A DNA stretch of 64,000 nucleotides from Escherichia virus TH54, in sequence record MT446420.1, one strand, 5' to 3'. Each line of letters opens with the position of its first letter. Positions within the stretch are counted from its first letter, which is position 1. Of this stretch, positions 42,811 through 52,025 are shown piece after piece. A program made the translations under genes and the position numbers. The notes under the pieces are model-generated. The model was not told where the DNA came from. It made no database searches and worked only from the letters and a program-made list of their open reading frames with translations.

Positions 42811-43017
42811 TCACTTGCGACGACGTTTTGGTAATGGTTTAGGGAAGAACATTGCTTTACCTGCAGGGGTCAAAGTCACACGTAAAGCATTACCAATACC
42901 AAGGGATGCTTTAACCAGACCTTTGGCTTTTAACTCACCAAATGCTTGACGTTGTTCAGGGTCACGAGTGTTAACCATCAGACCTTTTTCACCAGCAGCT
43001 TTGATTAATTCTAACAT
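42811..43017 (-). CDS. small basic protein
   Basis: 68 aa with C-terminal KRRRK. Confidence 0.45.
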   Translation of the reverse strand: MLELIKAAGEKGLMVNTRDPEQRQAFGELKAKGLVKASLGIGNALRVTLTPAGKAMFFPKPLPKRRRK

Positions 43018-43055
43018 TTTATTCTCCGTTTGTTTATTTGGTAACTCAGTATGGA

Positions 43056-43088
43056 ATCATTATGCATCATGACCATCTGGTTGTACAC
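43056..43088 (-). promoter_or_regulatory. early-type sigma70 promoter with CCATACTGAGTTACC leader
   Basis: Reverse complement GTGTACA-N17-GCATAATGAT. Confidence 0.5.
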
Positions 43089-43134
43089 ATATACTAAATA
43101 AAAATACTTAATAAAACCATAAAGGAGAAAGTTT

Positions 43135-43881
43135 ATGATTTTATCCGGAAGAACTGTTGATGAACTCAATGAAAAAGTCCAGGCTGCCTTGGCTAATAAT
43201 TGGTATTTGTTTGGTTCGACTATGGTGTTGCCGAATACCCCTACGGATAGCAAAGAGCGTTTTTTCCAAACTATGTCCAGCTCGGAAACTCAGATACCGG
43301 GTCCACCTGGTCCCAAAGGAGAACCGGGTGTACCAGGACCAAAAGGAGACCCAGGTGGGGATGGAAAATCTTCTTATCAGATATGGCTTGACTTGGGAAA
43401 TACAGGAACTGTTGATGATTTTTTAACTGATACAGCAGGAAAGAGGGAAAAATCCGAGGTGTTTTGGAGTGGTATAAACGTTCTATTAACCAATGGTGTG
43501 ACTTCAAACATAATTAGTGTTTTAAAGGGGATTCCACCGACTGCAGGGACTCTATCTCCGTTTTTTAGAACCACTGATGATAAGTTGTGGCCATATAACC
43601 AAGACAGAAGCCTAATGTTTAAACTCAACCTTATTGGTAATTTTGCAGGAGCCTCGCAAGCTCGAAGTATAACATTAAATTTCGTTGGAACCAACGGAAA
43701 CACTTATATACAGAATCGTCCGGAAAATGCTACAGATATTTTGTCTTTTACAACGTTCTTTAGCATTGATAAAGATGGGGCAATGGCAACCAATGGTACA
43801 GCTATAACTGTTATGCCAAATGGCGGCAACTTTACAATAACCTCTGCATTGTTAGTAGCCGAACAAACAGTGACTTCATAA
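43135..43881 (+). CDS. collagen-repeat, tail-fibre-like protein
   Basis: Plus strand; AAAGGAGAAAG Shine-Dalgarno; eight G-X-Y triplets (GPPGPKGEPGVPGPKGDPGGDG) followed by SSYQIWLDLGNTGT. Confidence 0.6.
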   Translation: MILSGRTVDELNEKVQAALANNWYLFGSTMVLPNTPTDSKERFFQTMSSSETQIPGPPGPKGEPGVPGPKGDPGGDGKSSYQIWLDLGNTGTVDDFLTDTAGKREKSEVFWSGINVLLTNGVTSNIISVLKGIPPTAGTLSPFFRTTDDKLWPYNQDRSLMFKLNLIGNFAGASQARSITLNFVGTNGNTYIQNRPENATDILSFTTFFSIDKDGAMATNGTAITVMPNGGNFTITSALLVAEQTVTS

Positions 43882-43882
43882 A

Positions 43883-43903
43883 CAAAAAAGGGCCGTATGG
43901 CCC
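43883..43903 (-). terminator. rho-independent terminator ending the nucleotidyltransferase operon
   Basis: GGGCCAUACGGCCC followed by UUUUUUGU on the minus-strand RNA, directly after the stop of 43904..44128. Confidence 0.6.
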
Positions 43904-44128
43904 TTAGATTGCACTCCAAAAATTATGGAATCTTATAGTATTGATAGCCCAGTTAACAAACCTGCGAGTTTGCTTGGGAGTTGGTTTGCATATGTACTTG
44001 ATATTGACCCGACGACCAGTTTCACGACAGACTGCTTCGAGATACCAGCGGCGACCTTTATGAGGTCTTCCATACGATAAGAAGACCTTGATTTCCTGGT
44101 TATCGATAATAGGAATTGTGGTTGTCAA
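43904..44128 (-). CDS. small basic protein (probable TTG start)
   Basis: GAGGAGG, 6 nt, then TTG; Arg/Lys-rich; track ORF extends to 44146. Confidence 0.4.
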   Translation of the reverse strand: MTTTIPIIDNQEIKVFLSYGRPHKGRRWYLEAVCRETGRRVNIKYICKPTPKQTRRFVNWAINTIRFHNFWSAI

Positions 44129-45110
44129 GATATACCTCCTCAACAAACTTGTCCCAGAACTTCATGTCCACCTTCGCAGGCATACCATTCTTAGCAGCCC
44201 AGATGGCATTAGTTTCGACTTCATCAACGATAGCTTCAAGTTCAGCCTGTACATCTTTAAAAGCATGTAACCCTTGTTTGATTTCAAGGATAAACGGTGC
44301 TGTTCGTAAAGGATATTGAAGGTCACCGGTCATATAAATTTCCTTCAGCTGATATCCAGCTCGATAAGCATGACTCAATGCTTTCCAGTCAATACCTTCA
44401 TTCGCTTCGGCCTTACGAGCACGTTCACCATATTCGGCATCAAGTTTATTCAGAGATTGCTTGAGCTCGATTAAAGACAGAGTAGTTTGGTATTTACGAC
44501 CGAGGACAGTATAGAACGTTTGAGGACCTGTTTTCTCATGGTTATGAAATACCCATTCACAGAACTCGTTTTCAGGGAGCCGGTGCTTAATATCTTCTAC
44601 CTTAGTACGTCGTTGCTTAGTAGAACCATCTTCTTGATAATCGACCCATTGTTCAGGAATCTGGTTAACGATTTCCAATACACCACGCAGTGCAGCCAAT
44701 CGAGAACCTTTAACACCATATTTGGAAGCTTGCTTGCGGACATACCCCAAATAGGCTTTCATGTTGGTTGTATAGAACCGCGAACGGTTATCCTGAATAA
44801 ACTTCCATACATCTGGTAAATCGGATTTGACAACCAGGTCAGCCGGCGTGTGAATCATGTCCAGAGCAACGGTTTCGCCTTCGGCCGCCAGTTTAAAGAA
44901 ATATTTCAGACTATAAAGTTCATGGTCAACATCATCTTTTGTATTTTTGGTAGCCGTGTTATTCGTGTTCAGGTTGGTATGGTTCATCGCCGTCCCAAGT
45001 AGAATATCACGAGGATGTGGAACAAAGATTTCTTTAAAATCGACATCAGATTCTGGGGTACTTGTTCCATAAAGGTGGCTACCGAAGTAGCCTTTCATAA
45101 TAGTTTTCAT
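44100..45110 (-). CDS. Pol-beta-superfamily nucleotidyltransferase-domain protein
   Basis: Start trimmed to ATG after GAGGACAAAGA; N-terminal GSHLYGTSTPESDVDF fits the GS...DxD nucleotidyltransferase signature; ATGA overlap with the upstream gene. Confidence 0.55.
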   Translation of the reverse strand: MKTIMKGYFGSHLYGTSTPESDVDFKEIFVPHPRDILLGTAMNHTNLNTNNTATKNTKDDVDHELYSLKYFFKLAAEGETVALDMIHTPADLVVKSDLPDVWKFIQDNRSRFYTTNMKAYLGYVRKQASKYGVKGSRLAALRGVLEIVNQIPEQWVDYQEDGSTKQRRTKVEDIKHRLPENEFCEWVFHNHEKTGPQTFYTVLGRKYQTTLSLIELKQSLNKLDAEYGERARKAEANEGIDWKALSHAYRAGYQLKEIYMTGDLQYPLRTAPFILEIKQGLHAFKDVQAELEAIVDEVETNAIWAAKNGMPAKVDMKFWDKFVEEVYLDNHNSYYR

Positions 45111-45559
45111 TCTTTGTCCTCGAAGTGGATTACTGGGCACATCTTAAATTTACGAGCTTTAATATATTGAATGAAAACATTTTCTTTAATTTCCTTTCCT
45201 TCACGTTTAGCTTTAATGCGTTCCCATTCTTTTTCTTCTTTACGTAAATCGTACCAGGCCCATAAATTCATTATACAATATACAATACCGACGGCTACCG
45301 CTAGAATAAGAGCCAGTGTAACCAGTCCTAAAATAAAACCTAAACTTAAGCCAACAGGAGTACTCAATACAAAGAACTGCTCCAATATACCAGCACCTGC
45401 AACAGTTAAGCCGAAAATAGTACTACCTGCAAGCACAGAACACATAAAGCACACCCAAACCATTTTCCAGAAGTATGCGCATAATGAGCGTGGACGTGAA
45501 TAACTGGCATAAAAACGGTCGTGTAATTTAACGTGCCAAGAGTTTGAATTGATAATCAT
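45107..45559 (-). CDS. integral membrane protein (about 3 TM) with charged C-terminal tail
   Basis: 150 aa; hydrophobic segments. Confidence 0.5.
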   Translation of the reverse strand: MIINSNSWHVKLHDRFYASYSRPRSLCAYFWKMVWVCFMCSVLAGSTIFGLTVAGAGILEQFFVLSTPVGLSLGFILGLVTLALILAVAVGIVYCIMNLWAWYDLRKEEKEWERIKAKREGKEIKENVFIQYIKARKFKMCPVIHFEDKE

Positions 45560-45569
45560 AATATTTTCC

Positions 45570-46130
45570 TTAAGAGTTCATAGTTGGGATAACAGAGTTC
45601 AGATAAGAGACTAAAACTTTTAGCTCGTCTTTAGTAAATACCACTTCACTTTCGCCGTCATGTCTTTGGACAATGGACAACAAGTCACGGCCGTTATGTT
45701 GATGCACAGTCAGTTCAGTATTATAATCTAATTCCTCTTCATCGCCTTCAAACGTTTCGCTAGAGCGAATCAGTGCGTCTTGTCCTGGGACTTTCCATTC
45801 AACTTCTGGTTTACATTCTTCCTGGAACAGTTTGAAAATACAATCAAAGAATTTATCAGAATCGCTGATGCTCAGACATTCAATACCATTTTCTAAATTA
45901 AACCCGTTTTCGTTTTTATAGATATAGGCATACATATCATCATTGATATCAACAGGAGCACTAGCACGACCATTAAGATAATCGTGTCTATCCAAAACCA
46001 TTAAATCATAAAGCGGTTTAATATCAGCGATAGTCAGTACGATTTTATCGTCTTCTTGACAAAGCTCAATTGCGTTATTAACTACTTCAGCGGTCAGTTC
46101 GCCAAACAATTCAGTTGTTTCAATAATCAT
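45570..46130 (-). CDS. hypothetical acidic protein
   Basis: 186 aa. Confidence 0.5.
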   Translation of the reverse strand: MIIETTELFGELTAEVVNNAIELCQEDDKIVLTIADIKPLYDLMVLDRHDYLNGRASAPVDINDDMYAYIYKNENGFNLENGIECLSISDSDKFFDCIFKLFQEECKPEVEWKVPGQDALIRSSETFEGDEEELDYNTELTVHQHNGRDLLSIVQRHDGESEVVFTKDELKVLVSYLNSVIPTMNS

Positions 46131-46140
46131 TTTCTGTTCC

Positions 46141-46431
46141 TCAACGGTTATGTTTTAAAATACTATAAAGTGCTTCTACTTGGCTTGCATCCAGGTAAAT
46201 AACATCATCATCTTGCTCAATGGAAATCCCACCAGTATTACCTTTAACAAAATTACATTCGCACACTTCAACCGGGCGGTATACGTCACCAACTGGATGC
46301 TCAGGCTCCAGAACAATCACACCATTTTCAGAATTACCACTTGGGTCATATAACATTACAGTTTCCTCGCTAACCATGAAAAGAATAAACCAATTAAAAC
46401 AGGCCCTATAGCCATTGTTAACCAAGCCCAA
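46141..46431 (-). CDS. hypothetical protein
   Basis: 96 aa. Confidence 0.4.
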   Translation of the reverse strand: MGLVNNGYRACFNWFILFMVSEETVMLYDPSGNSENGVIVLEPEHPVGDVYRPVEVCECNFVKGNTGGISIEQDDDVIYLDASQVEALYSILKHNR

Positions 46432-46447: not shown

Positions 46448-46705
46448 TCATCTCATGCTCCTGTGCCAACAATTTCTTGGTTCACGTTTAAAAATTTCAT
46501 CATGCATTGATTGACAACCAACACAATATATCACACCCCTAATCGCTTGTCTCCGCGCTTCAGGAATTTTTTCATCGCAGTCAAAACAGAATTCAGCAGA
46601 CTCCCTTTCAACTGCAACCTGTGCTCTCGCATGGGTGATAGCGGCTTGTACAACCGCTTCCATCTCTAACTGTTCAGCACCATCTTTTGCAAATCCAACA
46701 GCCAT
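46448..46705 (-). CDS. TraR/DksA-like C4 zinc-finger protein
   Basis: CFDCDEKIPEARRQAIRGVIYCVGCQ. Confidence 0.5.
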   Translation of the reverse strand: MAVGFAKDGAEQLEMEAVVQAAITHARAQVAVERESAEFCFDCDEKIPEARRQAIRGVIYCVGCQSMHDEIFKREPRNCWHRSMR

Positions 46706-46887
46706 TATTCTTTCAACCCATTCAGATAAGCAATTAATTCTTCTTTAGAACTATTCAAATCACGCTTGCACTGTTCTATTCCAGAATATGAATAACCTTC
46801 ACATAATTCAACAGCCAGGTCATTGGATGCGTTTTCAATGTGCCAAGCAAGTTTGATAATTTTTTCAATCTGTTCAGTAGTTAACAT
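46705..46887 (-). CDS. small paralog (MITLEQA family)
   Basis: 60 aa, MLTTEQIEKI.. Confidence 0.45.
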   Translation of the reverse strand: MLTTEQIEKIIKLAWHIENASNDLAVELCEGYSYSGIEQCKRDLNSSKEELIAYLNGLKE

Positions 46888-47081
46888 TATGCAGTCCTGT
46901 AATCAATAATTTCGTCAAGGAACATATCCAATGCTTCCAGAGCATTGTCAACCTTTGCTTCTAATTCTTCACCACCACCAAGCGATGGGGACCAATACGC
47001 AAAGTCATTTAGTGTTTCATCTGCTTCGCGAATCGCTTTTACCAATGCTTTAATTCTATCAGCTTGTTCTAAAGTAATCAT
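46887..47081 (-). CDS. small paralog (MITLEQA family)
   Basis: 64 aa, MITLEQADRIKAL.. Confidence 0.45.
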   Translation of the reverse strand: MITLEQADRIKALVKAIREADETLNDFAYWSPSLGGGEELEAKVDNALEALDMFLDEIIDYRTA

Positions 47082-47266
47082 TATTCCACCAATGATTCAA
47101 TGAAGGTATCAAGAGCTGCTTTAGCTTCATCCATTTGTTCTTCACACCGATTTCTGGTGTAATAATCAGATAAATCAGATTCAGATACTACAGTAAAGAA
47201 TCGGACTTCTTTCTTGTAGTTGGCGATAAGTTCTTTAAGTTTTTGAGCTTGTTCTAAAGTAATCAT
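47081..47266 (-). CDS. small paralog (MITLEQA family)
   Basis: Track ORF trimmed to MITLEQAQKLKEL; a 28-nt DNA block is repeated at the starts of this and the previous gene. Confidence 0.45.
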   Translation of the reverse strand: MITLEQAQKLKELIANYKKEVRFFTVVSESDLSDYYTRNRCEEQMDEAKAALDTFIESLVE

Positions 47267-47469
47267 TATTCCACCACATATGATAATGAGAAAATTGCTG
47301 ATGAAAGATGAGTAGCATCTTCTTCGCACAGTTCAAATGGAGCTTTCTGTAAGAGTTCAACAACTTCTTCATCAGTGGCACTGTCCATAAAGATTGCATA
47401 ATCATTAAGATAGATAACAACCTCATCACCAGTATTAACTGCATCAATCTTGATATTTTTAATTCTCAT
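47266..47469 (-). CDS. hypothetical protein
   Basis: 67 aa; own promoter. Confidence 0.45.
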   Translation of the reverse strand: MRIKNIKIDAVNTGDEVVIYLNDYAIFMDSATDEEVVELLQKAPFELCEEDATHLSSAIFSLSYVVE

Positions 47470-47495: not shown

Positions 47496-47527
47496 TAATA
47501 GTACACCCTTTTTATGAGGATGTAAAC
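47496..47527 (-). promoter_or_regulatory. early-type sigma70 promoter
   Basis: Reverse complement GTTTACA-N17-TACTATTAT. Confidence 0.45.
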
Positions 47528-47536
47528 CCCTAAATG

Positions 47537-47562
47537 AAAAAAGGTCCACCCGAAGGCAGACC
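47537..47562 (-). terminator. rho-independent terminator
   Basis: GGUCUGCCUUCGGGUGGACC followed by UUUUUUCAUUU. Confidence 0.55.
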
Positions 47563-47569
47563 TTTTGAA

Positions 47570-51442: not shown

Positions 51443-52021
<579 letters not shown>

Positions 52022-52025
<4 letters not shown>

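Follow-up and report, generated by a model that had tools for sequence, protein, structure and literature searches.

We analysed a 64,000-nucleotide (nt) stretch of Escherichia virus TH54 (sequence record MT446420.1; 'the window', in whose coordinates all positions are given) and found that the 336-amino-acid (aa) protein encoded on the minus strand at 44100–45110 is the orthologue of bacteriophage T4 NrdC.11 and, as predicted from its sequence, a DNA polymerase beta (Pol-beta)-fold nucleotidyltransferase (NTase); it falls in the RlaP family (PF10127), where it belongs to a divergent, long-form clade. The surrounding region forms the 3′ end of a string of early-region genes in a T4-like (Tevenvirinae) phage, comprising a mobD.1 homologue, a lineage-specific membrane protein gene, nrdC.11, a gene for a small DUF7279 protein and an intrinsic terminator. 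We consider it fairly probable that NrdC.11 is a counter-defence RNA-repair enzyme that rebuilds damaged RNA ends.

The protein starts MKTIMKGYFGSHLYGTSTPESDVDF and contains GSHLYGTSTPESDVDF at residues 10–25. Its longest open reading frame (ORF) runs from a GTG at 45140; translation from the ATG at 45110–45108 gives the 336-aa form, which is colinear with T4 NrdC.11 and 82% identical to it, without gaps, across its whole length of 336 residues. Its score against PF10127 ('RlaP, RNA repair pathway DNA polymerase beta family') is 42.4 bits, where the gathering cut-off is 23, and it matches phrog_388, 'nucleotidyltransferase', with E = 1.9e-132. The original prediction, made from the letters of the DNA, could assign none of the local genes to a named T4 gene and held that its proposal would be refuted if the NTase proved to be an ordinary conserved T4-family ORF; through its orthology to nrdC.11 that is largely what it proved to be, and the acidic protein encoded two genes upstream could be assigned as well, to mobD.1.

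Homologues of the NTase were found by tblastn in 1,516 phage records, from Escherichia, Klebsiella, Aeromonas, Acinetobacter, Vibrio and Caulobacter phages, and a profile search returned 8,519 clusters at 50% identity; all of the homologues listed carried a precomputed PF10127 assignment. The nrdC.11 gene is a known, named and widely conserved member of the T4 family, already annotated as a nucleotidyltransferase or as an RNA-repair Pol-beta family protein, and its similarity to the COG3541 nucleotidyltransferases had been noted in 2006 (PMC1524935). Many orthologues in GenBank and UniRef are labelled 'thioredoxin', and one 'HNH homing endonuclease'. These look like names that have spread from the neighbouring genes nrdC and mobD; the NrdC.11 protein has no thioredoxin domain.

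Conservation was assessed in an alignment of 38 homologues reaching down to 34% identity. The predicted catalytic residues G10, S11, D22 and D24 were invariant and D62, the remaining catalytic carboxylate, was at least 90% conserved, as was E64; further invariant motifs lay in the C-terminal part (KYGxKGSR at 130–137, YGxR at 227–230 and DWKALSHAxR at 241–250). D62 aligns with the third Asp of a canonical RlaP. An AlphaFold model (predicted local distance difference test (pLDDT) 88.7; predicted template modelling score (pTM) 0.75) places D62 on a strand (61–67) of an N-terminal alpha/beta NTase core, followed by a beta-rich insertion at about 150–210 and a C-terminal helical domain, with helices within 213–335. 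The protein therefore carries the G[GS] motif and three conserved carboxylates by which a Pol-beta core is recognized. The GS…DxD signature read from the sequence in the original prediction was correct; the protein passes the Pfam threshold of a family within the Pol-beta superfamily, and the third acidic residue that it had proposed to look for on the next strand is D62. Neither the protein sequence nor the 38-sequence profile, searched against the PDB, gave a meaningful match.

Bacterial homologues, at 34–50% identity to the 336-aa protein, sit in RNA-repair operons. Those of P0198 and P0189 (34–36% identity) have the gene order small 107–120-aa ORF, NrdC.11-like NTase, canonical RlaP, Hen1 and Pnkp, and in one contig set of this type RtcB lies next door. 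We surveyed 80 bacterial and archaeal loci with NrdC.11-like genes, clustering all neighbouring ORFs unsupervised, and found as recurrent neighbours canonical RlaP (21 loci), RtcB (10), Pnkp (7), ResIII helicase (6), Ro60 proteins with TROVE and vWA domains (5), Hen1 (5) and HAD_PNKP plus kinase (3). The representative of the canonical RlaP neighbours matched PF10127 end to end with 255 bits. These neighbour families show that the NrdC.11 clade itself, beyond PF10127 generally, is embedded in RNA-repair systems.

The 107–120-aa ORF, which is conserved (TLYRPVGPEELELIRQSGFRAFPPRLPEQPIFYPVL…), often precedes the bacterial NrdC.11-like genes, abutting or overlapping the NTase start (L007, 5678–6001; L010, 5642–6004; also L131, L134, L140, L148, L158 and L160). 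It matched nothing in Pfam and could be an uncharacterised part of Pnkp/Hen1–RlaP operons.

The RlaP family was defined by Burroughs and Aravind in 2016, as quoted in PMC7824862 and PMC12776372, and it had been predicted that phage RlaPs restore, before ligation, the nucleotides removed by RloC-type nucleases (PMC7824862). Two canonical RlaPs encoded in RtcB operons of Pseudomonas are characterised in a preprint of December 2025: these enzymes add one or two nucleoside monophosphates (NMPs), or their deoxy counterparts (dNMPs), to an RNA 3′-OH, are inactive on DNA and protein, prefer Mn2+ and favour nicked-tRNA mimics, in which the 3′ end resembles that of a nuclease-cut anticodon loop (PMC12776372). 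They partly rescue aminoacylation of a tRNA missing one anticodon-loop nucleotide, and RlaP was put forward as the antidote to ribotoxins of the "smart" kind, such as RloC, that cut and then remove a nucleotide (PMC12776372). The same work assigns T4 NrdC.11 to PF10127, in a sequence-similarity cluster of its own (cluster 5), and the enzymes assayed were canonical RlaPs (PMC12776372).

From this family biochemistry, together with the operon context, we infer the following mechanism for NrdC.11. D22, D24 and D62 would hold two metal ions, and the enzyme would transfer one or a few NMPs from nucleoside triphosphates (NTPs) to the 3′-OH of a broken RNA. Its likely substrates would be tRNA halves that are short of a nucleotide once a host anticodon nuclease of the RloC type has attacked. 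In T4-family phages the genes for Pnkp and RNA ligases lie in other parts of the genome, and these end-healing and sealing enzymes, as known from T4, could then restore a usable tRNA. NrdC.11 would on this account be a counter-defence RNA-repair accessory, dispensable in laboratory hosts; the T4 nrdC.11–mobD.3 block is deletable (PMC9825161), which fits an accessory, host-dependent function. Among the functions that had been offered for the NTase, a nucleic-acid-modifying or counter-defence role comes closest to this evidence, and signalling found no support.

Several observations weigh against such a repair role. The PF10127 match covers the N-terminal half of the Pfam model only (residues 6–133 against profile positions 23–141 of 249), the similarity of the NrdC.11 clade to a canonical RlaP, weak at hhalign E = 0.032, is limited to the N-terminus, and no RlaP crystal structure for direct comparison was found in the copy of the PDB that we searched. 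The enzymes assayed so far include none of the NrdC.11 type. There is no RNA ligase, kinase-phosphatase or tRNA gene in the NTase operon, and the homologues checked across 38–52 kb of the window include no repair enzyme, so that the link to repair is one of guilt by association, through distant bacterial homologues. The tandem arrangement with canonical RlaP in bacteria suggests, moreover, that the two types are non-redundant, and our confidence in the exact activity is for this reason only moderate.

The gene directly upstream of nrdC.11 (45107–45559, minus strand) encodes a 150-aa membrane protein of phrog_944 with about three hydrophobic segments. The TH54 protein has one long hydrophobic block at residues 26–103 or so, and a 19-residue Kyte–Doolittle window, a crude estimate of topology, gives three segments in close relatives; conserved motifs are SWH..L...RP..LC.YFW at the N-terminus and ARK.K.CPVI at the C-terminus. 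The family occurs in 931 phage records. Oleosin was considered as its family and rejected, the Pfam match being below threshold. The next gene upstream (45570–46130, minus strand) encodes a 186-aa acidic protein (isoelectric point (pI) 4.18), the homologue of T4 MobD.1 (33% identity, E = 2e-19), with the Pfam domains T4_y05I_N and T4_y05I_C ('putative transcription factor').

The NTase ATG at 45110–45108 does overlap the TGA of the membrane protein gene as ATGA, as originally read, but the proposed coupling of the two proteins did not hold up when adjacency was compared across 78 related viral loci (L011–L088). Only among the closest relatives and phages of the Tequatrovirus type does a recognisable homologue of the membrane protein stand next to the NTase; T4-likes of Klebsiella, Enterobacter and Serratia have it 0.5–1.7 kb upstream with other genes between, and in phages with an NTase identity of 60% or less it was not detected among these loci. 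In a check that makes no use of homology, the ORF ending at the NTase start was multi-transmembrane (at least two hydrophobic windows) at only about 15 of the 78 loci. Most other lineages have a soluble ORF directly upstream, and in T4 the position is taken by mobD, a free-standing HNH endonuclease gene. In most lineages the NrdC.11 start overlaps or abuts the upstream stop (ATGA, TGATGA or TAATGA), whichever gene is upstream (the membrane protein gene, soluble ORFs of 114–185 aa or, in T4, mobD). The arrangement recurs with unrelated upstream ORFs because NrdC.11 begins ATG-A(A/G)A (Met-Lys or Met-Arg); the tight packing is therefore generic and no evidence of partnership, and we rejected the ATGA overlap as a sign of functional coupling. 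The bacterial homologues had no membrane neighbour in the 80-locus survey. The membrane protein is probably not an obligatory partner of the NTase but a lineage-specific neighbour, and it and the acidic protein are syntenic neighbours only, with no demonstrated link to the enzyme.

We considered, as a possibility with perhaps a minor share of the probability, that the substrate of NrdC.11-type enzymes differs from that of canonical RlaP. The enzyme might AMPylate or otherwise neutralise a host protein, for example a HEPN RNase, in the manner of an MNT antitoxin, or act on a small molecule or on DNA ends, with its RNA-repair neighbourhood in bacteria reflecting a different step or a regulatory role. 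The restriction of the PF10127 match to the NTase core, the placement of the clade in a sequence-similarity cluster of its own and the bacterial tandem with canonical RlaP, which speaks against simple redundancy, would all fit, as would a weak MntA-like match over the GS…D motif. That match, however, reaches 13.4 bits against an NCBIfam equivalog cut-off of 60, no HEPN partner gene was seen in the neighbourhoods that were examined, the neighbours that recur encode enzymes of RNA end healing and sealing rather than toxins, and the family members that have been assayed act on RNA only. It is likewise only a tentative suggestion that the long-form, NrdC.11-type NTase does a distinct step, for instance with another nucleotide or substrate specificity or on the other RNA fragment, with the DUF7279 protein in this phage lineage possibly as its RNA-binding or specificity subunit; if that were true, T4-like phages would carry a second layer of tRNA repair against nucleotide-excising anticodon nucleases.

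The gene overlap in TH54 and its Tequatrovirus relatives could also be taken to mean that the membrane protein and the NTase, perhaps with the small basic protein, form a dedicated module like the Hailong system, in which an oligonucleotide made by the NTase gates a membrane effector, or a phage decoy of one. We regard this as improbable. Besides the appearance of ATGA with any upstream gene and the scarcity of multi-transmembrane ORFs in that position, most Klebsiella and Enterobacter T4-likes have a soluble ORF between the two genes, T4 keeps nrdC.11 with mobD in the slot of the membrane gene, and the bacterial homologues do without a membrane partner; identity to HalB is 13%, in a match to the generic NTase core, and neither protein had a PADLOC match, although the 2023 library may lack Hailong models. 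More improbable still is that the 336-aa protein is a second-messenger synthase of the cGAS/DncV-like (CD-NTase) type, as had been suggested, or a CCA-adding or poly(A) polymerase-type enzyme. The GS…DxD motif that points this way is common to the whole Pol-beta superfamily, whereas no Pfam, NCBIfam or PADLOC match to the CD-NTase, PolyA_pol or CCA families was obtained and the protein passes the threshold of a different family, PF10127. None of the listed structural matches of the NTase model is a CD-NTase, and searches of PADLOC and NCBIfam gave no significant match for any of the four proteins encoded at 43904–46130.

Downstream of nrdC.11, a 73-aa basic protein (pI 10.7; 14 Lys and Arg residues) of the DUF7279 family (phrog_8921) is encoded at 43904–44125 on the minus strand. 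Its TTG start at 44125, 26 nt inside the 3′ end of nrdC.11, follows GAGGAGG by 6 nt, and the same TTG with a GAGG-like Shine–Dalgarno sequence is present at all 14 related loci that carry the small ORF, several of which have no other in-frame start; the small Arg/Lys-rich protein with an apparent TTG start had thus been read rightly. The 73-aa form aligns with PHROG 8921 along its full extent. The ORF was detected at 14 of the 78 viral loci, always directly 3′ of the NTase gene with an overlap of about 26 nt, and the protein occurs in 211 phage records and in only nine clusters of a database of 5.8 billion proteins. That it is a real gene is argued by 26 invariant residues across homologues that are 53–86% identical. 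Its predicted structure (pLDDT 86.6) is a four-stranded sheet with a long C-terminal helix, for which a structure search gave no specific relatives; WYL was rejected as its family, the Pfam match being below threshold. RefSeq carries no annotation of the ORF for SP18 and RZ, where homologous DNA is present (L001, 3923–4201; L003, 6083–6300), probably because gene callers missed it on account of the TTG start and the overlap. T4 and most phages with NrdC.11 are without the protein. Among the neighbours, only this small basic protein holds a fixed position relative to the NTase, so that it could be an accessory factor; that it assists the enzyme or binds nucleic acid is possible, though this is speculation.

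The small ORF has its stop codon within reach of, and overlapped by, an intrinsic-terminator hairpin at 43888–43905 (minus strand), with the stem AAGGGCC-ATAC-GGCCCTT of 7 base pairs (bp), five of them G–C, and an ATAC loop. The hairpin (−14.3 kcal/mol; z = −3.0 against shuffles) is followed by the T-run TTTTTGTTT, reaching about 43880, and phage RZ has the identical site. Across the region, terminator-like sites show no enrichment (4 found against 4.8 expected), and the terminator is credible because it lies exactly between two convergent genes. The second of these (43135–43881, plus strand) ends at the hairpin and, although outside the NTase unit, sets its 3′ boundary. It encodes a 248-aa protein with a collagen-like Gly-X-Y stretch (residues ~53–77) and an Sf6-type tail-needle-knob domain (Pfam Phage_tail_NK, E = 2.9e-32; phrog_1030). 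Such an opposite-strand, structural-type gene is unusual within an early region; by eye, no exact T4 late promoter, TATAAATA, was seen in 42990–43134. The gene is in the same spot in phage RZ and at other positions near nrdC.11 in a few other T4-like loci (L034, L053, L058 and L063).

ORF analysis gave four closely spaced ORFs on the minus strand at 43904–46130, and these form the tail, at the 3′ end, of a string of about 10 co-directional genes. A gene for a 71-aa acidic protein (DUF7189; phrog_4844) at 46141–46356, also on the minus strand, lies only 10 nt upstream of the mobD.1 homologue, and the string therefore does not start at 46130. Of the terminator-bounded, four-gene operon that had been described, the four genes and the 3′ terminator stand; the 5′ limit does not, and the unit is bounded at its 3′ end only. 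A consensus scan placed the nearest upstream terminator-like hairpin and promoter-like site at 47498–47566 (minus strand), directly 3′ of the rI.-1 homologue, with a 12-bp stem at 47566–47539 followed by TTTACA-17-TACTAT at 47526–47498; the transcription unit closed at 43888 probably has its 5′ limit here. At the DNA level the region is 85–93% identical to many phages of the Tevenvirinae, among them Gaprivervirus SP18, VR7 and RZ, and homologues of nrdC, nrdC.6, nrdC.8, nrdC.9, mobD.1, rI.-1, rI, tk, vs and regB flank the NTase gene in T4 order; like its T4 counterpart, the gene lies in the early stretch from nrdC to tk, between the nrdC.x block and mobD.1. No tRNA genes (tRNA scan) and no Rfam families at gathering threshold (Rfam scan) were found in the entire 64-kb window.

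Other genes of the region, all on the minus strand, were noted in passing. Three successive small acidic ORFs at 46705–47329 (60, 64 and about 60–80 aa), with starts of the form M(L/I)T(T/L)EQ…, have the look of tandem paralogues, and the matching genes are named mobD.3, mobD.4 and mobD.5 in relatives. An 85-aa ORF at 46448–46705 has a CxxC…CxxC pattern, its counterpart in relatives being annotated as a TraR/DksA-family C4 zinc-finger protein. The gene at 51750–52025 is 75% identical to an RZ gene annotated 'vs.4 gene product'. We take T4 Vs.4 to be Acb2, the anti-CBASS cyclic-nucleotide sponge, and if that is so, nrdC.11 has a known counter-defence gene some 6 kb away.

For the scanning of genomes the finding has little weight, nrdC.11 being here a routine orthologue of a named T4 gene found in more than 1,500 sequenced phages. 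The role of NrdC.11 in infection is a question for the whole clade and its relation to canonical RlaP, beyond TH54. RNA repair as a counter to anticodon nucleases was discovered in T4, and the activity of NrdC.11 bears on the published prediction that RlaP-type enzymes are an antidote to cut-and-excise nucleases such as RloC.

Compared with known systems, the TH54 gene is closest to T4 nrdC.11 (NP_049709, 336 aa), with which it shares length, strand, early-region context and the syntenic slot downstream of mobD.1. In T4, however, the HNH homing endonuclease gene mobD lies between mobD.1 and nrdC.11, where TH54 has the 150-aa membrane protein, and only 114 nt follow nrdC.11, with no annotated DUF7279 gene there. 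Hailong HalB (PDB 9dbh) and kanamycin nucleotidyltransferase are NTase-plus-helical-domain enzymes, 10–13% identical to NrdC.11, but they belong to different families and differ in partner logic and substrates (dATP oligomerisation and aminoglycosides, respectively); Hailong pairs the HalB NTase with the membrane channel HalA, and the TH54 NTase lacks such a conserved pairing with a membrane effector. Canonical RlaP was found in 86 phage records, mostly of genomes of about 260–310 kb from phages of Pseudomonas, Caulobacter, Brevundimonas and Burkholderia; its matches in the phage collection included no T4-like phage genus of the E. coli type, whether of Escherichia, Shigella or another host. 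The canonical enzymes (PF10127; Pseudomonas PfRlaP and PaRlaP) are about 270–290 aa long against about 320–340 aa in the NrdC.11 clade, which has its own beta-rich insertion and its own invariant motifs KYGxKGSR and DWKALSHAxR. The two types share a Pfam family and a three-carboxylate Pol-beta core, followed by a helical domain that in the PfRlaP crystal structure forms a cleft with the NTase domain and in NrdC.11 is predicted by the model, and in bacteria RNA-repair operons with RtcB or Pnkp/Hen1 are host to both.

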